Source: an uncultured Gemmatimonadales bacterium
Lineage (GTDB): Bacteria > Gemmatimonadota > Gemmatimonadetes > Gemmatimonadales > GWC2-71-9
Reading direction: 5' to 3'
DNA length: 64,000 nucleotides
Assembly (NCBI GenBank): GCA_963828735.1
Contig: CAWHFW010000005.1
Span: 2,400,001 to 2,464,000, forward strand
A model generated the notes under the pieces. It made no database searches, was not told the DNA's origin, and saw only the letters and a program-made list of their open reading frames with translations. A program made the translations under genes and the position numbers. Every line of letters begins with the position of its first letter. The stretch's first letter is position 1. Positions 1 to 57,592 of the stretch are shown piece by piece.

Positions 1-991
1 GTGTGGTCCGCACCACCTTCTCGCCGGCGGCGATCCCGCTCACGACCTCGACCCGGTTGCCGTCGAGGTCCGCGCCGAGCGTGACCGCGCGGAGCGTGGT
101 GCGGTTGTCGTCCCACACGAGCGCGTAGCCGTCCTTGGCCACCGCCGAGCGCGGGATGGCGACGACCCGCCGCCGCTCGGCGCCGAGCTGCACGGTGACG
201 CTGCTGCCCGGCGTCAACGCCGAGCCGGGGGCGAGCTGCAGAATGACCTCGCGGGTGCCGCTCGCGGCGTCGATGACGGGCGACGTGCGAACGACCCGGG
301 CCTCGGCGCTGGCGCCGCGGACGGCGAGCACCCGCCCCGTCGCGCCGACCCGGATCGCGGACGAGGCCGTCTCCGGCACGCGGACCGCGGCCAAAACGGG
401 GGCGAGCGCCGTGACACGGAAGAGCGAATCACCCGCGTTGACCAGACGTTGCACGCGCGCCATCCGCGCGGTCACCACCCCGTCGAACGGCGCGACGATG
501 CGGGTCAAGTCGTAGTCACGCTGCGCCTTCCTCACCGCGAGATCGGCCGCGCGGTGCTCGAACTCCACCTGCTCGGAATCGGCGCGAGTGACCACGCCGG
601 CCGTGGCCAGCGCGCGTTGCCGCTCGACCCGCTGGGAGGCGTTGGCCGCCTGCTCGCGGGCCTGGTCGAGCGCGATCTCCTGGTCGGTACTCTCGAGCTG
701 GGCGATGAGCTGACCGGCCGCCACGCGCGTGCCGATGTCCGCGAGGATGCGCTCGACCTGCCCCGAAGACCGCGCAACGACTGCGGCGTCGTGTTCCACA
801 TAGAGTTGCGAGGAGAGGCTCAGCGGGCGGTCCACCGTCGTGCTTTCGGCTGTCTCGATGTTCCCTGGCGGAGGCGTCGTGATGGTGGCGGCGGCCGCGG
901 TCTCGATCGTGCGTTTGCGGTCCGGCACGTTGTCACCGGCGCCGGCGCAGGCGGTAAGCAAGATCGCGAGCGGCAGGGCGGTGCGGGTCAC
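1..991 (-). CDS. RND/HlyD-type periplasmic adaptor (membrane fusion protein), lipoprotein; runs off window start
   Basis: Own translation from GTG at 991, overlapping the upstream TGA: MTRTALPLAILLTACAG (lipobox), VVARSSGQVERILADIGTRVAAGQLIAQLE, IVAPFDGVV, VEVVSGIAAGEKVV. Absent from the ORF track because no stop falls in the window. Confidence 0.85.
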   Translation of the reverse strand, partial: MTRTALPLAILLTACAGAGDNVPDRKRTIETAAAATITTPPPGNIETAESTTVDRPLSLSSQLYVEHDAAVVARSSGQVERILADIGTRVAAGQLIAQLESTDQEIALDQAREQAANASQRVERQRALATAGVVTRADSEQVEFEHRAADLAVRKAQRDYDLTRIVAPFDGVVTARMARVQRLVNAGDSLFRVTALAPVLAAVRVPETASSAIRVGATGRVLAVRGASAEARVVRTSPVIDAASGTREVILQLAPGSALTPGSSVTVQLGAERRRVVAIPRSAVAKDGYALVWDDNRTTLRAVTLGADLDGNRVEVVSGIAAGEKVVRTT

Positions 992-2916
992 GACCAGATC
1001 CTCCACCAGAAGAGACGGCCCCACCGGAGCGGTCCGCGGAAGAGCCGCGTGGCTGCGGAGGCCGGGTCGGTGAGCACGCGGACGTAGGCCGCCATGCTCG
1101 GCTTGAGCGCGCCGTCGGGATTCGCCACGACGGCGCGGACGGGATAGCGCACCTCGCCCGCGGTGTCGGCCGGAATCGGGGCCACCGCCAGCACTCGGCC
1201 GACGAAGGTGCGCTGGGGGACCGCATCCACCCGCAGGTGCACATCCTGACCCGCGCGCACGCGATCGATGTCGCGCTGGGGCACCCCGAAGTCGAGCTCG
1301 AGCGAGTCGGTCCGCCCGATGGCAAGGAGCTCGTCGCCTTCCTCGAGGGACGCGCCCACGCGCTCGGTGACCCGCGGGGTCAGGACCACGCCGGGAACCG
1401 GCGCCCGCAGGGTCGTGAGCTCGACTTCTTCATCGAGCAGCGACACCTCGCGTCGCAGCGCGTCGCCGCGGAGCCGATGCAGCCGCTCCTCCGACGGGTC
1501 GCCACGGCTCGCGGCGAGCGACGCCAGTCGATCCGCGGAGGCGGCCTCGGCCGCGGTGGCTTCGCGGTCGGCGCGCAGCGTGGTGGCGCGGAGGTAGGCG
1601 ACCGGCGTCCCCCGGGACACGACGCTCCCTTCGGCCACCGGAATGCGCTCGACCACGCCCGCCACGAGCGCCCGGACCGGTGCGAATCCCATCGCGCGGA
1701 ACGCGGCGTCCTCGCCGGCTACCCGGAACGGCCAGCGAATGAGGAACAGCCCCGCGACCACGACCGCGGCGACGGCCGCGTAGATCTTGAGCCGGCGGTG
1801 TGGAATCGAGCGCAGCGCCTGCCGCTTGGCGGCCAGCGCACCCAGCGCGTCCACCATCGGGACCTGGTGGTAGAGCTGGGCATTCCGCAGCGCCACGGCC
1901 GTCTGGTTGGCCAGAATGGCGGCGACTTCGCGCTGCGTCGGCGTGGTGAAGTCGGCCGAGCCGGCCTCGAAGACCAGCACGCCGAGCACGCCCTCTTCGT
2001 CCTTGAGCGGGAGATAGAGGCCGCTCTCGACTCCATCGCTCTCCAGGTCCGGGCCGAAAATGGTGACGAACATCCGCTCGGCGTCCGAGCCGGGCGCCCC
2101 GCGCTCGACGAGGTAGAGCGGCTCGCCGCGCCCCGCGGCCCATTCGGCGCGGGCCACCAGGTCCTGCAGCTTGGGATCCTTCGGATCCACCGTCTCCTCG
2201 CCTGCCACCGCCCGGATGTCGCAGCGTCCCTTCTCGTACAGGGCGACGGCGGCGCGATCGAACGACAGCGCGCGCGAGGCCAGGTTGACCACCGATTGCA
2301 GCACGCGGTCGAGATCGAGTGTGGCCGTGATCTCGCGGCTGATGTCCAGCAGGACCGCGAGGTCACCGGCCCGCCGGCTCGCGGCGTGGAGCTGCGCGTT
2401 GCGCAGGGCCACGGCAGCCGTGGCCGCCAACCCCTCGAGAAAATCGCGATCGCGCTCGTCGAAGATGCCCTCGTCCGTGACCTTGCTGGTCACCTGGATC
2501 GCGCCCACGGTGTCACCGCCGGCCACCATCGCGGTGGCCATGACGTTGAAGCCAAGGGTTTCGGTCGAGGGGTCGGACCCCGGCTGAAATCGGGGGTCCT
2601 CCTGCGCACGGGTCGCCATCGTTGTCGTCTGCTGCTGGGCGGCCTCGCCGATGAGGCCGGTCCCCACGGGGACTTCGGCGCCGATCAGGCGCGAGCCTTG
2701 GCCGCCGACCGCGATGCGGCACCTCAGCACGTCGCCGTCGGCGATCCAGATGGATCCCCCTTCGGCGCCGAGGGCGGCGAGCACCCGGTCGAACACCTTC
2801 GGCAGCAGCTCATCGAAATCGAGGGACGCGCCCAGCTCCAGGCTGATGGACTGGAGCAGGCGCAAACGCTCGACTTCCTCGCGGAGTTCGTCGGTCGACG
2901 TTGCAGGTGCGCTCAT
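988..2916 (-). CDS. GAF-GAF-TM-HlyD family membrane fusion protein
   Basis: Two GAF repeats ending AVALRNAQL, TM segment IYAAVAAVVVAGLFLI, lipoyl-like halves VRALVAGVVERIPVAEG and LRAPVPGVV, beta-barrel ending LKPSMAAYVRV. Confidence 0.85.
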   Translation of the reverse strand: MSAPATSTDELREEVERLRLLQSISLELGASLDFDELLPKVFDRVLAALGAEGGSIWIADGDVLRCRIAVGGQGSRLIGAEVPVGTGLIGEAAQQQTTTMATRAQEDPRFQPGSDPSTETLGFNVMATAMVAGGDTVGAIQVTSKVTDEGIFDERDRDFLEGLAATAAVALRNAQLHAASRRAGDLAVLLDISREITATLDLDRVLQSVVNLASRALSFDRAAVALYEKGRCDIRAVAGEETVDPKDPKLQDLVARAEWAAGRGEPLYLVERGAPGSDAERMFVTIFGPDLESDGVESGLYLPLKDEEGVLGVLVFEAGSADFTTPTQREVAAILANQTAVALRNAQLYHQVPMVDALGALAAKRQALRSIPHRRLKIYAAVAAVVVAGLFLIRWPFRVAGEDAAFRAMGFAPVRALVAGVVERIPVAEGSVVSRGTPVAYLRATTLRADREATAAEAASADRLASLAASRGDPSEERLHRLRGDALRREVSLLDEEVELTTLRAPVPGVVLTPRVTERVGASLEEGDELLAIGRTDSLELDFGVPQRDIDRVRAGQDVHLRVDAVPQRTFVGRVLAVAPIPADTAGEVRYPVRAVVANPDGALKPSMAAYVRVLTDPASAATRLFRGPLRWGRLFWWRIWS

Positions 2917-2946
2917 GTCGGGTAGTTGAGGAGGGGCCTAACGACG

Positions 2947-3006
2947 GGCTCCGGCTTCCCGCAGTCGGGGGAAGCCGGAGCCGAGGCGCCCGCGGGAACC
3001 GCGGGC
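2947..3006 (-). other. Two GC-rich stem-loops between the peptide genes and the exporter
   Basis: 14-bp perfect stem 2947-2960/2969-2982; 8-bp stem 2988-2995/2999-3006; no U-tract. Confidence 0.6.
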
Positions 3007-3025
3007 GGACGATCTACGCCGCGAG

Positions 3026-3154
3026 CTAGATCTTCATCGGCGCGATCTTCTCCTCGAGCTCTTCGACGCCAAGCTCGACGTCCTTGGCCGGGACCGGCTT
3101 CTTCGGCTGCTGTTCGGGGGTCTTGGTCCGGGACTGCTCGTCGTGCTTGATCAT
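3026..3154 (-). CDS. Small peptide 2 (42 aa), ELxVEELExxIAP family
   Basis: MIKHDEQSRTKTPEQQPKKPVPAKDVELGVEELEEKIAPMKI; GAGAG upstream; paralogous motif. Confidence 0.75.
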   Translation of the reverse strand: MIKHDEQSRTKTPEQQPKKPVPAKDVELGVEELEEKIAPMKI

Positions 3155-3201
3155 GATAGCTCTCGTTTCGGAGAAGGTCGAGGGTGGAACGTCGTTTCGG
3201 G

Positions 3202-3360
3202 TTACTTGTGGCCCGGGATGATCTTGGCCGGCGCGATGCGAGCCTCGAGCTCCTCGACCGAAAGCTCCACGGCCTCGGCATCCTTCCCAGTCGCCTTGCG
3301 AATGCTGTCCTTCTGCTCGGTGGTCAGATCGATCCGGAACGAGTCCTTGGCGCTTGACAT
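3202..3360 (-). CDS. Small peptide 1 (52 aa), ELxVEELExxIAP family
   Basis: MSSAKDSFRIDLTTEQKDSIRKATGKDAEAVELSVEELEARIAPAKIIPGHK; AGGAG RBS; full-length similarity to 7784-7939. Confidence 0.88.
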   Translation of the reverse strand: MSSAKDSFRIDLTTEQKDSIRKATGKDAEAVELSVEELEARIAPAKIIPGHK

Positions 3361-3415
3361 CGTGAGCTCCTGGTGTGGGTCTGCGATTTGGGGGCGGCCA
3401 GACTGACTGGGAACG

Positions 3416-3469
3416 AACCTACCAGGCTGCCGTGAAAAGATCGTGATTGCCTACTTGCCCTTCCGTCAA
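3416..3469 (-). promoter_or_regulatory. Putative SARP-activated promoter of the peptide 1/2-exporter operon
   Basis: Minus-strand TTGACG (3464-3469), ATCACG (3442-3447) and TTCACG (3431-3436) at 22/11 bp spacing, then 9 nt, then TAGGTT (3416-3421). Confidence 0.7.
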
Positions 3470-3508
3470 TCCCCGATACGTTAGCAGGGTCTTCCCCTTG
3501 GACCATTC

Positions 3509-5758
3509 GTGTCCGCCTTCACGCTGCGACTCTTCGGTGCCCCAACCCTCGCGACCGCCGAGGGGAGAACGGCCGTGCCCGCCTTGGGGGCCAAGCCGCT
3601 CGCCCTGTTGGCGTACCTGGTGCTGGAGCCCCGTCAGCACACCCGAGAGGCGCTGGCAGGGCTCCTGTGGGGCGAGTCGCCCGAGGCCGAGGCGCGTGCC
3701 TCCCTTCGGCAGGCACTCAAGCATCTTCGGGACGTGTTCGGTGACCAGCTCCATGCCGAGCGGGCGCTCGTGGAGTTGGCCGCACCGCTCGCCTGTGATG
3801 CCCTGGAGTTCCGGGCAGCGGCGGAGCGCGACCCCGTCCATGCGGTCGGCTTCGACGTTCCCCGGTTCCTGGAAGGGTTTTCGGTGCGCCGAGCGCCGCA
3901 GTTCGAGGAGTGGGTTTCCACGGCGCGCGGGGGCCTGCTCCGGCTTTACCATCAGGCGCTCGATCGCGCCGCCCGGGAATCGATGCGCCAATGCCGGTGG
4001 CGCGAGGCGGTGGAGCTCGCCGACCGGTGGCTCGCGAGCGAGCCAGTGTGCGACGAAGCGGCCCATCTCGCCGTCGAGGCACGCTACCTCTCGGGCAACC
4101 GCGCCGGGGCGATGGCGCGGTTCGCGGAGTACCGGGATCTCCTGGCCCGTGAGGCGGGGTGCGAACCCGGCCGGGCCCTCGAAGCCCTGGTGCGGCGGGT
4201 CGAGGCGGATCGGACGACGCACGACGCGGCGCCGATCACCGACGAGTGGTACACCCGCGCTCCGACCTTCGACGCGAGCCTAGTGGGGCGCGACGCCCAG
4301 TGGAAGGCGCTCACCGCGGCGTGGAAAGGCGTACAGCGCGGACAGGGCCGCATCGTCCTGATCGACGGCGAATCCGGCGTCGGCAAGTCCCGCCTGGCCG
4401 ACGAGTTCCTGCGGTGGGTGGTGGCCGAAGGCGGGACGACTTTGCATGGGCGGAGCTACGACCGCCGCGCGGGCATTCCCTACGAGCCCGTCGTCGAAGG
4501 GCTCCGCTGTGCCCTCGGCGCCCCCGGACTGGGTGGCACCTCGCCCGAATGGCTGGTCGAGGTGGCGCGACTTCTTCCGGAGATTCGCGAGCGCTTCCCG
4601 GGCCTGCCCGCTGGGGGGGAAGCCGATGCGACGGAAGGGTGGCGGCTCTTCGAGGGCGTGGCGCAGCTCCTCAGCACCATCGCCGCCGAGCGGCCGGTGG
4701 CGATCGTCATCGACGACCTGCAATGGTGCGACGAGGACAGCTGCAACCTCATCCGGTTTCTGACCCGCCGTCTCGAGCGCTCCGCCGTCCTGTGGCTCGG
4801 CGTTTTGACCCTGGGTGAGGTCGAGCGTGACGCGCCCGCGTCCCGCCTCTGCCGAGCGCTCCGCGCCAAGGGTTCCGCCGACGCCCTCACGGTGGGGCCG
4901 CTCGGCGAAGAGGACATCTGGCAGCTGGTGCGCGAGATGGGGCACGTGAGCGTGCCCACTGGGGGGCGCCGACTGGCCGCTCGTCTCCATCGGATCACGG
5001 GCGGCAATCCATTCTACGTGATCGAGCTGCTCAAGACGATGTTCGCTCAAGGCCTACTCTCCATGGACGGGGATACCGGCGAATGGACCGTGGTGCCCTC
5101 CGAGGTCGGGGCGGGCCGGGAGGTGCCGGTCTCGCAGACGGTGCAGGACGTGATCGCCGAGCGGGTCGATCGGCTGTCCACCGACCTGCGTGACGTCCTC
5201 ATCACGATCGCGGTGAGCGGCGGCGGGTGCCGCCCGGACGTCCTTTCCCACGTGCACGGGATCTCCCGGCTTCGCGCCGCGTCCGCCGGCGACGCGCTGG
5301 TGGATCGCTATCTCGTCACCGAAGAAGGCGGCTGGTACCGGTGCATTCACCCGGTCATCGCCCACATGGTACGGGACGGCCTCACGGCCTCGCGCCGGCA
5401 GGAGGTGCACCGCGCGATCGCGTTGGCCTTCGAGCTGGTGATGGAGGGAGACGAGCTGGTCGCGGTCGCTGGGGAGATCGCGCGCCACGCGGAGCGGGGA
5501 GGCGAGCGGGATCTGGCGTATCGCCACGCGCGACGCGCGGCCGAAAGCGCGGTGACGCGCTACGCCTACGCCGAGGCACTCTCGTGGCTCGACCTCGCGG
5601 CGTCCTCCGCCCGCGGCTCCGTGCAGGTGCAGGCGGTGGATCAGCTGACGGCCGAAGTCATGGAACGCGCCGGTTGGAGCGAGGCCCCGCGCCGGGCGAC
5701 GGCGCCCGTCACGCGCGAGATCGTGAGCGAGGATTTCGACCTTCGTGTGCGCGGCTAA
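3509..5758 (+). CDS. AfsR/SARP-type regulator: winged HTH + BTAD + AAA ATPase
   Basis: LRLFG...ALLAYL...REALAGLLWGE...SLRQAL N-terminus; Walker A GESGVGKS; Walker B IVIDDLQW; TGGNPFYV. Confidence 0.9.
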   Translation: MSAFTLRLFGAPTLATAEGRTAVPALGAKPLALLAYLVLEPRQHTREALAGLLWGESPEAEARASLRQALKHLRDVFGDQLHAERALVELAAPLACDALEFRAAAERDPVHAVGFDVPRFLEGFSVRRAPQFEEWVSTARGGLLRLYHQALDRAARESMRQCRWREAVELADRWLASEPVCDEAAHLAVEARYLSGNRAGAMARFAEYRDLLAREAGCEPGRALEALVRRVEADRTTHDAAPITDEWYTRAPTFDASLVGRDAQWKALTAAWKGVQRGQGRIVLIDGESGVGKSRLADEFLRWVVAEGGTTLHGRSYDRRAGIPYEPVVEGLRCALGAPGLGGTSPEWLVEVARLLPEIRERFPGLPAGGEADATEGWRLFEGVAQLLSTIAAERPVAIVIDDLQWCDEDSCNLIRFLTRRLERSAVLWLGVLTLGEVERDAPASRLCRALRAKGSADALTVGPLGEEDIWQLVREMGHVSVPTGGRRLAARLHRITGGNPFYVIELLKTMFAQGLLSMDGDTGEWTVVPSEVGAGREVPVSQTVQDVIAERVDRLSTDLRDVLITIAVSGGGCRPDVLSHVHGISRLRAASAGDALVDRYLVTEEGGWYRCIHPVIAHMVRDGLTASRRQEVHRAIALAFELVMEGDELVAVAGEIARHAERGGERDLAYRHARRAAESAVTRYAYAEALSWLDLAASSARGSVQVQAVDQLTAEVMERAGWSEAPRRATAPVTREIVSEDFDLRVRG

Positions 5759-5777
5759 CTGGAGACCACGAGGCATC

Positions 5778-6692
5778 ATGTTACGCACCGCCCTGCTCGT
5801 CTCTGCCACCGTGCTGCTCGGCGCGGCCTGCGACGACCTTCGTCTTCCCGCGCTCCCCGCCAAGGCGGGAACCGACACCGCGGTGGCCACCGCCTCGCCA
5901 TCTTCACCGAAGCCGAACCGTCCTGTCCGTCGCGCCACCAACGTCGACCCGGCGCTCGCCGCCCAGCGGCTCGACCTCGTGCGCCGTGAGCTTCGCCGCC
6001 TGGTGGTCTCGGAAGAGACGTACTACGCGGAGAACGGGACCTATACCGAGGACCTCGCCCGGATCTCATTCGCGCCACGAAACGACGCCGACGTTCGATT
6101 CCTTTGGCTCGCGCGGGGCGGATGGGCGGCCAGCGGCACCCATCCCGATGTCCCCGGCCGCGATTGTGTGGTGTACGTGGGGCGGGCGCACGGCGCGCCC
6201 ACGACGCTGCACGACGTGCGTCAGGGACGTGAAGGCGCGCCCGTGTGCGACGGACCGCCGCCGCGCCCGGTCCCATCGCCGGCGCAGCCCCAGACGGCGG
6301 CGGGATCTCCCTCGAGCCCGGCCGTCGCCTCGGCGCCGACGGAGTCTCCGCCGACCACGCCCGACACGGGCAGCGCGCTCGACATGGTGGATCCTGCGGT
6401 TCAGATGCGCGTGGACCTTAGGAATCTCGTGCTATCCCAGGACACCTATTTCGCCAACCAGGGCATCTATTCCCGGCGGACCGAGCCGTTCGCGCTCCAG
6501 TACCTCTGGCACCGCGGCGTCACGATCTCGATTCTGACCGCGACGGATGCGGGGTGGTCCGCCAGGGCGACCCATGCGTCGCGGCCCGGGAAAAGCTGCG
6601 TCATCTGGCTCGGAACGGTGACACAGCGGCCGGCGACCGAGGCGCAGAGGCGCACGCCCGAGCAGCCTGGGGCGCCCGTCTGCGACAGCTGA
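5778..6692 (+). CDS. Lipoprotein with two tandem pilin-like globular domains
   Basis: Signal MLRTALLVSATVLLGAAC; internal repeats LRRLVVSEETYYAENGTY and LRNLVLSQDTYFANQGIY, each ending C..GAPVC. Confidence 0.7.
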   Translation: MLRTALLVSATVLLGAACDDLRLPALPAKAGTDTAVATASPSSPKPNRPVRRATNVDPALAAQRLDLVRRELRRLVVSEETYYAENGTYTEDLARISFAPRNDADVRFLWLARGGWAASGTHPDVPGRDCVVYVGRAHGAPTTLHDVRQGREGAPVCDGPPPRPVPSPAQPQTAAGSPSSPAVASAPTESPPTTPDTGSALDMVDPAVQMRVDLRNLVLSQDTYFANQGIYSRRTEPFALQYLWHRGVTISILTATDAGWSARATHASRPGKSCVIWLGTVTQRPATEAQRRTPEQPGAPVCDS

Positions 6693-6795
6693 GATCGCCA
6701 GGCCTAGGCGCTTCGGTTGGGCAGAACGATGACGCCTCGACCGTTACGGAAAGGGGTCTAACGAGAGCGAATTTCGCACGCCATTATTGCGCGAT

Positions 6796-7461
6796 ATGAA
6801 ACGGTTCGAGTGCTCCGGGGTTCTGTTCGATCTCGACGGTGTCCTGGTGGACTCCGCCGCGTACGTCGAGCAGCAGTGGCGAGGCTGGGCCAGCGCCCGA
6901 GGCCTTCGGCCCGAGCCGTTTCTCCGCGTGTGCCACGGGCGGCGTGCGCTCGAGACGATTCGGATGGCCGCGCCCCACCTCGATGCCGAGGCAGAGGTGA
7001 GAGCGTTCGCGCCGGTCGAGGACACCAGCACGAGGATCGGTCCCGTCGCGGGTGCGCTCCGGCTGCTCACCGCGCTTCCAGCGAACGGATGGGCGGTGGC
7101 CACCAGCGGGCTTCGATCCACCGCGGCGAGCCGCCTGCGTCAGGCGGGCTTGCCGGCTCCATCGGTGCTCATCTGCGCGGAGGACGTCGCCCACGGAAAG
7201 CCCAGCCCTGACGCCTACCAGCTGGCCGCGCGCGCCCTGGGCCTCGGGCCGCACGAGTGCGTCGTCATCGAGGACGCCCCGGCCGGCATCCAGGCGGCGC
7301 GAGCGGCCGAGATGGCGGTGATCGGTCTCACGACCACCCATTCGCTCGACCAGCTCCCGGCAGATGCGTGCGCCAGCTCGCTCCTCGGCGTCCATCTCGG
7401 GCGCGTGCACCAGAGGCCCGACGGGCGCGATCGGATGGAGTTGCTCGTCGTCGAGGCCTGA
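6796..7461 (+). CDS. HAD-IA family phosphatase (YfbT-like)
   Basis: FDLDGVLVDS, ATSG, GKPSPD, IEDAPAG motifs. Confidence 0.88.
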   Translation: MKRFECSGVLFDLDGVLVDSAAYVEQQWRGWASARGLRPEPFLRVCHGRRALETIRMAAPHLDAEAEVRAFAPVEDTSTRIGPVAGALRLLTALPANGWAVATSGLRSTAASRLRQAGLPAPSVLICAEDVAHGKPSPDAYQLAARALGLGPHECVVIEDAPAGIQAARAAEMAVIGLTTTHSLDQLPADACASSLLGVHLGRVHQRPDGRDRMELLVVEA

Positions 7462-7722
7462 GCCGTGGTCCCGGGCTCCCACCTGCACAGCGTCCCCCAA
7501 AATCCTCCTGGTCCAACGACGCCTCCGTTTTTCGTGGTAGTTCGGGAAGGGCGGGAGAATCGAGTCGCGAGGTCGGGCTTCTGCAAATGCATCTGGCTCC
7601 GACGATCGCACGGCATCCCCAACAGCCGGTTACCCCACCACCGCAGCTGGGGTGAGGGAGGAGCGGTAGAAACGGCCGTCTATGGAAGGTGGCGACGCGC
7701 GGTGAGAGTGCCGTGAATTGAG

Positions 7723-7757
7723 CGCCCCCTCCCGCCGCAAGTCGGCGAGAGGGGGCG
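7723..7757 (-). terminator. Stem-loop downstream of peptide 3
   Basis: CGCCCCCTC(T)CGCCG-ACTTG-CGGCG(G)GAGGGGGCG on the minus strand; weak U-tract. Confidence 0.55.
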
Positions 7758-7783
7758 GGACGGCCCAACGTCATTCGAAGACC

Positions 7784-7939
7784 TTACTTGTTGCCCTTGA
7801 TGGGGAAGGGCTTCGCCGGGGCGATACGCTCTTCGAGCTCTTCGACGTTCAACTCGAGGGCCCGGGCGTCCTTCCCGGTGGCGGCCTTGACCTGAGCCTT
7901 CTGCTCTTCGGTAAGCTCCAGGCGGATGTGCTCGGACAT
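7784..7939 (-). CDS. Small peptide 3 (51 aa), ELxVEELExxIAP family
   Basis: MSEHIRLELTEEQKAQVKAATGKDARALELNVEELEERIAPAKPFPIKGNK; AGGAG RBS; downstream hairpin. Confidence 0.88.
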   Translation of the reverse strand: MSEHIRLELTEEQKAQVKAATGKDARALELNVEELEERIAPAKPFPIKGNK

Positions 7940-7980
7940 TGTGCGCTCCTGTCGGGGTGGGGGACTGATCGACAGGGGGC

Positions 7981-8034
7981 AACCTAGGCCACCGTCGTGA
8001 ATATCCGGTGAATTTGGGCGCGGGCGACCGTGAA
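7981..8034 (-). promoter_or_regulatory. Putative SARP-activated promoter of peptide 3
   Basis: Minus-strand TTCACG (8029-8034), TTCACC (8007-8012) and TTCACG (7996-8001) at 22/11 bp spacing, then 9 nt, then TAGGTT (7981-7986); same geometry as 3416-3469. Confidence 0.72.
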
Positions 8035-8053
8035 CCAGGGCGCGGGAGTCGGC

Positions 8054-8503
8054 TCAGCTGGAGCTGACCCGCTGGGCAAAGTCGGTCCAGAACTCCTCGG
8101 TCAGCCGGCGCGCGGTTCCTTCCAGAAACCGGGCGCCGAGCTGCGCGACCGCGCCGCTCAAGTCGCTCGTAGCCGACCAGTTGAGCCGCGTATGCCCGTT
8201 TCCGCAATCCTCGAGGCGGAGGGACGAAATCACGTCGACCAGGGAGCCGGGGGCCTTGCCGGACGCGCGCATCCTGAGGCGCTCGCCTTCGACGATGTCG
8301 GATAGCTCAACGTCCAGGGTGAACCTCACCTTGACCGAACCCACGCCCAAGCCCGAGACCACCTTGAAGTGAGTGGGGTCGAGACGCTCGACACGCTCCA
8401 CACCCGGCCCCGAGGCGGCGACGAAGTCGGGATCCATCAGCTTCTCCCAGACCTTCGTGCGCGAGGCGCGGATCTCCGGAGCGCCGGCGAAGTCCCATTT
8501 CAT
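8054..8503 (-). CDS. CoxG/SRPBCC family protein
   Basis: VWEKLMDPDFVAASGPGVE...GVGSVKVRF...GAVAQLGARFLE pattern. Confidence 0.85.
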   Translation of the reverse strand: MKWDFAGAPEIRASRTKVWEKLMDPDFVAASGPGVERVERLDPTHFKVVSGLGVGSVKVRFTLDVELSDIVEGERLRMRASGKAPGSLVDVISSLRLEDCGNGHTRLNWSATSDLSGAVAQLGARFLEGTARRLTEEFWTDFAQRVSSS

Positions 8504-8674
8504 CAAGAAGATCCCTCGAGCGTCGGTCGGTGCGGCAGGAAGTGGCGGTAAGCGCGGCTGTCCAGGCGCGGGCCGCGAGAAGGTTGGTCTTCTCGCGAAG
8601 GAGGGTCAAGGTTCCACGCTCTTGACCTGCGAGGTCCCATCCCTGTAACCTCTCTGTCCGCTTGACCCTAGCTT

Positions 8675-8747
8675 TGGGGTGTAGCTCAATCGGCAGAGCG
8701 CCCGGCTGTTAACCGGGAGGTTGCTGGTTCGACCCCAGCCGCCCCAG
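8675..8747 (+). tRNA. tRNA-Asn(GTT)
   Basis: Cloverleaf: acceptor TGGGGTG/CGCCCCA, anticodon arm CCCGG-CTGTTAA-CCGGG, T-loop GGTTCGA; CCA not encoded. Confidence 0.95.
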
Positions 8748-8751
8748 TCGA

Positions 8752-8782
8752 CCGAGGGCCCGCGTTGTCCGCGGGCCCTCGG
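8752..8782. terminator. Hairpin between tRNA-Asn and the convergent hemolysin III gene
   Basis: 13-bp perfect stem CCGAGGGCCCGCG/CGCGGGCCCTCGG. Confidence 0.6.
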
Positions 8783-8810
8783 CGCGTTCGGTCGTCGTCG
8801 GCTCCCGCGC

Positions 8811-57563: not shown

Positions 57564-57592
57564 TTGACGGGCCTACCCCCGCCCGCTAGGTT
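57564..57592 (+). promoter_or_regulatory. Sigma70 promoter of the tRNA-Ala/tRNA-Gln operon
   Basis: TTGACG-N17-TAGGTT ending 25 bp before tRNA-Ala. Confidence 0.7.

Follow-up and report, generated by a model that had tools for sequence, protein, structure and literature searches.

TTCACG repeats before two small-peptide loci of an uncultured Gemmatimonadota bacterium are likely operators of a divergent AfsR-like protein

How are the two small-peptide loci of an uncultured Gemmatimonadales bacterium switched on? They lie on the minus strand of a 64,000-nt stretch of assembly GCA_963828735.1 (contig CAWHFW010000005.1, positions 2,400,001 to 2,464,000; this whole stretch is the window, to which plain positions refer), from a genome of 4.78 Mb that is 97.5% complete, and a gene for a wHTH-BTAD-ATPase protein diverges from the first of them. 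Comparison of this stretch with its relatives indicates that the TTCACG repeats before both peptide genes are very probably operators of that divergent protein, a predicted activator. The elements concerned are as follows.

3464..3469, minus strand: locus 1 distal box, TTGACG (one mismatch to TTCACG), within the spacer of the regulator's predicted promoter
3442..3447, minus strand: locus 1 middle box, ATCACG, at predicted -38..-33, occupying the place of the -35 element
3431..3436, minus strand: locus 1 proximal box, TTCACG, at predicted -27..-22
3416..3421, minus strand: locus 1 predicted -10, TAGGTT, with a predicted start near 3409
8029..8034, minus strand: locus 2 distal box, TTCACG
8007..8012, minus strand: locus 2 middle box, TTCACC
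7996..8001, minus strand: locus 2 proximal box, TTCACG
7981..7986, minus strand: locus 2 predicted -10, TAGGTT, with a predicted start near 7974
3509..5758, plus strand: wHTH-BTAD-NOD-short TPR regulator, 749 aa, an AfsR-like STAND protein as judged from Pfam, AfsR matches and a structure model
57564..57592, plus strand: tRNA-Ala promoter, TTGACG-17-TAGGTT, hexamer at 57587, for reference only and outside the regulon

The initial annotation had placed T(C/G)AC(G/C) pentamers at 3464, 3442 and 3431 and at 8029, 8007 and 7996, each set followed by 9 nt and TAGGTT, and had recognized the same hexamer as the -10 of the tRNA promoter; all of these coordinates are correct. Its description of the intervening sequence as unrelated holds for the spacers (identities of 5/17, 2/6 and 2/9) but not for the final 18 nt through the ATG, which match at 14/18 positions. 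Because of this match, and because the peptides of the two loci are 61% identical, the two promoters are probably duplicates and not fully independent. A scan of both strands of the genome, as had been proposed, found only three matches to the three-box pattern with TAnnnT, so the motif is not common at random: both sites of the window and one at C5:778205, at a distance of 42 bp from a further divergent wHTH-BTAD gene. Likewise, a weight matrix trained on relatives only ranked the window sites highest in the genome (37.1 and 34.1), followed by C7:41066 (22.0) and C5:1704342 (18.6), the maxima in two simulated 2.4-Mb control genomes being 14.5 and 23.2. The three-box pattern at the window loci is beyond chance. 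A generic promoter scan did not detect the peptide-locus promoters, and an Rfam search of 2900-8800 returned nothing besides the tRNA. Several weaker candidates were discarded: a box-like site at 7686-7716 (score 10.6), which overlaps a terminator tail and was not seen in six relatives; relaxed matches at C2:12777 and C2:45696, within what we take to be rRNA sequence; relaxed matches at C2:86673 and C5:47490, low-scoring or within coding DNA; and pattern matches at C5:1047742 and C5:1051079, inside peptide coding sequence.

The element is strongly conserved beside the regulator. Fifty-nine distinct regulator-adjacent regions were compared, namely the window and those of 58 orthologs, with regulators 42-81% identical. 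A TCAC pair with at most one mismatch, followed 9 nt on by an A...T hexamer, is present in 59/59, and -11A and -7T, which were not selected for, are invariant in all of them, while base -12 varies (C28/T20/G8/A3). The distal box, 21-23 bp upstream, carries no more than one mismatch in 50/59 regions and is lost in eight. Among 39 distinct relative sites selected solely for TCAC-N7-TCAC, -11 is A in 38, -7 is T in 39 and -12 is T in 12. The conserved element is thus TTCACG-N5-TTCACG, 9 nt, then N-A-N-N-N-T. TAGGTT, put forward as a shared element, does occur at both loci but is not conserved in relatives, where only -11A and -7T are kept, and it is one -10 variant among many, found in 3/55 tRNA upstream regions. 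According to PMC10936776, SARP proteins bind direct repeats 11 or 22 bp apart, the last one 8 bp from the -10; this rule, invoked in the initial annotation, is confirmed by that source and fits 59/59 regions, with the refinements that the box unit is the hexamer TTCACG and that the distal spacing is 21-23 bp rather than strictly 22, the AfsR register being retained. These promoters lack a usable -35, and their -12 is often not T, which is typical of activator-dependent promoters.

Conservation extends to the peptide genes. The box is present at 81/89 first-in-array peptide genes (some of whose genomes overlap the matrix training set), at 31/79 inner genes and in 0/85 control stretches, and of 79 peptide loci 65 contain the regulator, all 65 with a box. 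The gene order regulator, boxes, peptide(s), GAF-HlyD, membrane-fusion protein (MFP), protease-HlyD and kinase is conserved, the regulator diverging from the rest. The element is therefore real and conserved, an operator-promoter whose operator role is predicted. In tandem arrays (L013, L014, L015, L018, L020, L022 and L028), the box pair of the second peptide begins where the first gene ends, at its stop codon or just past it.

The divergent protein has the domains expected of a SARP-type factor. Its BTAD (37.8 bits) and AAA_16 (101 bits) Pfam matches are over the cut-off, and that to Trans_reg_C is under it (E 0.0024); its N-terminus matches the AfsR structure 8hvr (E 1e-6), and its structure model (predicted local distance difference test score, 86) has AfsR as the best fold match, further matches being Apaf-1, 6mfv and 8bob. 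The TPR-like part spans about 100 aa in the model. Residues G290/G292/K293, D402/D403 and H614, characteristic of STAND proteins, are conserved among orthologs, and an HP stands at the invariant H614 where AfsR has the HD latch, described in a survey covering Actinomycetota (bioRxiv 10.64898/2026.09.02.748808). The AfsR DNA-contact residues compared were Q48, W74, P79, T88, R94 and K95; W74, R87 and R94 are kept, T88 is Q and R92 is H, and P79 and K95 differ. Q68, the counterpart of AfsR T88, does not vary among 49 orthologs. By its domains and its sequence and fold matches the regulator is a SARP-NOD (STAND) protein. With 19.9 bits against the AfsR model NF053617 (cut-off 1430) it is not an AfsR ortholog, but by analogy it is predicted to work like AfsR. 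The C-terminal acidic tail (5714-5755; D-L/F-D-L) has D at both positions in 60/67 cases, and a few orthologs lack the tail; by eye only, its E-I-x-x-E-D-L-D-L-R-V resembles the peptide leader, and the peptide profile run on the tail gave no score. A complex prediction of regulator residues 95-726 with a precursor peptide scored 0.00, evidence neither way.

The motif also follows the regulator among genomes. In a survey of 60 relatives (strict 14-base pattern; ortholog, 50% identity or more), the pattern occurs in 34/34 relatives with an ortholog and in 2/26 without (G015, 63% complete, and G039, with one match), and the reversed pattern in 0/60. In a draw of 251 genomes from the phylum (ortholog, E<=1e-100; G151, 33% over a 1402-aa frame, excluded), four candidates per genome were scored and some orthologs may be missed; here 31 genomes have an ortholog, of which 27 have strict matches and the remaining four carry variant boxes next to that ortholog. 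In G206, genes whose counterparts are boxed in ortholog-bearing relatives have boxes too. A strict box pair is kept before one gene in genus g40 (L208; G211, G187 and G151), where the ortholog was not detected; the gene presumably encodes pyruvate phosphate dikinase. At L206 and L213 a strict box pair precedes a ccmE-like gene.

A further line of evidence comes from paralogs. There are 13 BTAD matches in the source genome, for several of which the start is not placeable, and four besides that of the window have divergent 11-bp repeats, 9 nt and TAnnnT with boxes of their own (TCACG, TGAC, CGAC and GAACG). Upstream of other wHTH-BTAD genes, 34 regions were compared (the 30 best loci plus four of the source genome), and the geometry xAC-11-xAC-9-A...T is found in 17 of them, against 1.1% of shuffles. 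AfsR T88 contacts the base pair at the third box position, as reported in PMC10936776, and here the third box base is C/C in 3/3 regions with Q at this position, A/A in 8/10 with R and 1/1 with K, and G/G in 2/2 with E and D, N giving one mixed case. This suggests a candidate rule in which the third operator base goes with the residue aligned to AfsR T88 (Q-C, R/K-A, E/D-G). One of these paralogs (C5:778163-778260; L002:8164-8260) is a 260-aa SARP with four TCACG boxes at an 11-bp period, facing a divergent lipoprotein-like gene, and the same small-SARP layout occurs in G033 and G010. An R-type SARP clade (L229, L231, L233, L237, L238, L242, L246 and L250) has a distal TCACG and two (C/A/G)AACG boxes with a CAG(T/C)GT-like -10, and a TTGCCG...TACGTT promoter on the opposite strand downstream.

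RNA coverage was assessed from contigs of four among 19 soil RNA runs found via this stretch, whose depths rank nothing. The contigs lie on peptide genes: X8 covers 4/30 bins, all at peptide genes, with a contig at 3120-3398 without mismatches, and X17 has one at 3290-3396, also without mismatches. The ends at 3398 and 3396, from two studies, fall 11-13 nt inside the predicted start near 3409 and are a weak hint of it. The X1 contig 7782-7973 ends one base from the predicted start near 7974; in X1, 27 bins are covered, in X5 likewise most of them, and both runs may contain DNA.

Several observations weigh against assigning the boxes to the divergent regulator. The strict pattern was derived from genomes that are also within the 60-genome count, which is thus partly circular, and kin are not independent. 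Strict matches occur in 30/220 phylum genomes without a detected ortholog (reversed pattern, 3/251); the 20 such matches viewed, in 17 genomes, have no BTAD or peptide gene nearby and mixed downstream genes, and the excess is only partly explained. The regulator of G089 faces GAF-HlyD with no box between, the box having moved with the peptide, and a 37%-identical gene in G120 has neither peptide nor box. The AfsR R92 position is H/Q/R/A in this family, about five clades underlie the residue-base rule, which has two exceptions among 10 R-type boxed regions, three other family peptides of the source genome have no boxes, and the X8 contig 7791-8016 crosses the locus-2 boxes, suggesting read-through or DNA. 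Moreover, the motif equals the cre/blr-tag of the OmpR-family proteins CreB and BlrA, TTCACnnnnnnTTCAC (PMC3660660), with an exact fit at locus 2 and one mismatch at locus 1, an identity that the initial annotation had not recorded. An OmpR/PhoB-family response regulator might therefore bind the repeats, the BTAD gene being a mere neighbor; the source genome has six OmpR-type genes, and the matches in ortholog-free genomes would fit. However, none of the six has a box pair within 2.5 kb, creD was not found in this 97.5% complete genome, near-complete ortholog-free genomes mostly lack the motif (in genus g3, 4/6 lack it and both ortholog bearers have it), and no box is present at a Longimicrobiales locus that has peptide and export genes yet lacks a regulator over its 10.6 kb. 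The boxes beside other BTAD genes also change with the BTAD helix, and because a response regulator would not explain this residue-base covariation, the BTAD protein is favored and binding by a CreB/BlrA-like protein appears improbable.

It is also unlikely that the BTAD protein acts on the boxes mainly as a repressor, as their position over the -35 and spacer region could suggest, or that the paralogous Q-type SARP (C5:778163), with its four TCACG boxes and the same Q residue, is the real activator: the promoters are of the activator-dependent type described above, close orthologs of the paralog (62-68%) were found in only 4/60 other genomes of the genus, and the boxes follow the large regulator. 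That the two promoters resemble each other merely as a functionless relic of gene duplication, as the related peptides and ribosome-binding-site regions might imply, is largely refuted and deserves almost no credence, since boxes and -11A/-7T are kept while spacers diverge, with regulators 42-81% identical, and in several genomes unrelated genes are boxed too. The proposal that the divergent wHTH-BTAD-ATPase protein controls both loci is thus supported, as a prediction, by its AfsR matches, box linkage, register and paralog covariation.

The distal box, in addition, may serve the regulator itself, a placement likewise absent from the initial annotation.

3455..3482, plus strand: the regulator's predicted sigma70-type promoter, TTGCCC (3455-3460), 16 nt, TACGTT (3477-3482)

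TTGCCS-16-TASGTT lies upstream of the regulator in 55/59 regions, with a spacer of 16 in 54. Autoregulation is likely because the distal box sits within the spacer of this promoter, and from the geometry it would probably be negative. Locus 2 keeps a distal box without a divergent gene, so this box likely serves activation too.

The genes that would respond to the regulator encode small precursor peptides and proteins for their export.

3202..3360, minus strand: precursor peptide 1, 52 aa, leader end ELEARIAP, predicted core of 8 aa, under the exact-match RNA contig 3120-3398
3026..3154, minus strand: precursor peptide 2, 42 aa, leader end ELEEKIAP, predicted core of 3 aa, without a box of its own
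2947..2982, minus strand: strong hairpin after peptide 2, no U tract, predicted to lower expression ahead of the export genes
988..2916, minus strand: GAF-GAF-HlyD adaptor protein, whose gene opens the predicted export operon
1..1024, minus strand: second MFP; the operon continues beyond the window with an RRE-site-2-protease-HlyD gene and two Ser/Thr kinase genes (L001)
7784..7939, minus strand: precursor peptide 3, 51 aa, leader end ELEERIAP, predicted core of 10 aa
7723..7757, minus strand: hairpin after peptide 3, a likely terminator; the matching gene is followed by one in 6/6 relatives viewed

A terminator scan found none with a T run at the 2947..2982 hairpin. All three peptides share the leader end ELE(E/A)(R/K)IAP. 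The peptide is found in 34/60 relatives, and its family comprises 800 representative proteins at E<=0.001; among named records, 78/79 loci are from Gemmatimonadota and one is a short Acidobacteriota contig. In 254 proteins the cores after IAP have a median of eight residues, are P/G/K/R/T-rich and vary in their end residues. By conservation, the small open reading frames are real genes; the initial annotation had reached this view from the promoter match, which counts for less as independent support (the promoters are probably duplicates), and the conserved family, which counts more, and the RNA contigs now bear it out. The protease-HlyD protein matches the daptide metalloprotease model with E 7e-60 and 203 bits, below the cut-off of 300, and is homologous over residues 12-411; its HExxH is intact, and the HELGH and NPLxPLDG residues are invariant. 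Because Foldseek of its model gave only adaptor proteins, the RRE assignment rests on NCBIfam matches and the secondary-structure pattern.

In relatives, boxes also precede unlinked peptide genes, kinases, lipoproteins and, in several genomes, unrelated genes. In the source genome, C7:41066 precedes a secreted DUF4440 protein gene, which is also boxed in G010, G012 and G036, and C5:1704342 precedes a LuxR-type gene with the same site in six relatives. The predicted regulon is thus small, with unlinked peptide genes and a few secreted-protein, kinase and LuxR-type genes. Other members of the peptide family were seen elsewhere in the genome: an unboxed peptide at C5:2539841 (L256), with the core end ...NHNEPMLDRLA, directly follows a TPR-like coding sequence; the peptide homologs include NHNE-type cores and a cassette protein with eight repeats (P0123); and near-identical peptide genes at C5:1047741 and C5:1051078 (L003) keep the leader helix without a LEERIAP end or box. 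Just past the kinases, L001:350-9447 holds an arginine biosynthesis operon and an unnamed P-loop gene (1680-2825). A predicted lipoprotein gene encoding two repeats of an unnamed domain, with no Pfam family over the cut-off, follows the regulator downstream in the window (5778-6692) and in many relatives.

By analogy with AfsR, the regulator would be held off by its NOD domain until a signal arrives, the likeliest candidate for the activating input being the co-operonic Ser/Thr kinase. Two adjacent monomers would then occupy the boxes at about -38..-33 and -27..-22, take the place of -35 recognition and bring in the housekeeping sigma factor, activating otherwise weak peptide promoters as AfsR activates afsS. 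The output would be the peptide transcript and the downstream GAF-HlyD, MFP and RRE-site-2-protease-HlyD genes, whose products would cut the leader after ...IAP and export cores of 3-15 residues.

A broader picture is possible, though we hold it only tentatively: a peptide-signaling loop in a diderm soil phylum, in which an NLR-like factor would activate hypervariable mini-peptides and an RRE-protease-adaptor exporter, repress itself via the distal box and be switched by the peptides or leader, and in which the recognition-helix residue would set the third operator base across Gemmatimonadota SARPs. If this is true, Q-C, R/K-A and E/D-G would form a usable recognition code for the family, and target prediction would be opened for the roughly twelve BTAD regulators of each genome. 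Searches of the literature on Gemmatimonadota SARP/BTAD proteins, ribosomally made, post-translationally modified peptides (RiPPs) with site-2 proteases, M50/HlyD/RRE proteins and divergent SARP autoregulation yielded no description of the system, as judged from titles and abstract openings. The promoter logic is already known from Streptomyces; by the same titles and abstract openings, the host phylum, operator, divergent autoregulatory layout, peptide-export regulon and candidate code appear new. SARP-type activation has been characterized mainly in Actinomycetota, and a Streptomyces-type control circuit would thus extend to another phylum. Sequence alone here defines an operator and a regulon in an uncultured Gemmatimonadota lineage, together with a likely autoregulatory site and a candidate residue-to-base code, and points to the control of a widespread, apparently undescribed peptide-export system, and the short TPR part makes the regulator a simple model for what activates AfsR-like STAND regulators.

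In Rgg/SHP and other RRNPP pairs, the regulator gene diverges from a small peptide gene, a site-2 protease processes the peptide, and there is feedback. The present locus has the same divergent regulator and small peptide gene, a site-2 protease and predicted feedback, but its regulator, a STAND ATPase, has just a short TPR part, the host is diderm and no import route was identified. The cre/blr system offers an identical motif, TTCAC-N6-TTCAC, bound by the same winged-helix fold (PMC3660660), but here creD was not found, no box lies near the six response-regulator genes and the motif follows the BTAD protein. Daptide leaders, which end in ELExMEAP, are cut off by an RRE-site-2 protease (PMC10036551); here the leader end ELEERIAP stands in a matching register, the RRE-intramembrane protease is a homolog of DapP/MpaP that scores below the model cut-off, and each cluster likewise has several precursors. 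Unlike in daptides, no tailoring enzymes were seen in the conserved cluster, which leaves no room between regulator and kinases for genes of enzymes installing N2,N2-dimethyl-1,2-propanediamine, no C-terminal Thr is invariant, the cores are short, basic and Pro-rich, the protease is fused to HlyD, two more adaptors are present and the cluster has no ABC transporter.

The Streptomyces coelicolor AfsR-afsS system, with AfsK, is the closest in promoter architecture. It differs in that the present host belongs to Gemmatimonadota rather than Actinomycetota, the regulator has 749 aa with a short TPR part, T88 and R92 are replaced by Q and H/Q/R/A, an HP takes the place of the HD latch, and the layout is divergent with the distal box in the regulator's own promoter, the targets being leader-core precursors and export genes. 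As described in PMC10936776, AfsR is likewise a SARP-NOD-TPR protein with 11-bp repeats over the -35 and spacer, a small-protein target and a Ser/Thr kinase gene in the cluster. The afsS promoter described there has a weak -10, CACTGT, and an AfsR core, TTCAGC, at -38..-33; if the -10 element is placed at -12, TTCACG here occupies the same register before a likewise weak -10 whose first base is often not T in the regulator-adjacent regions.

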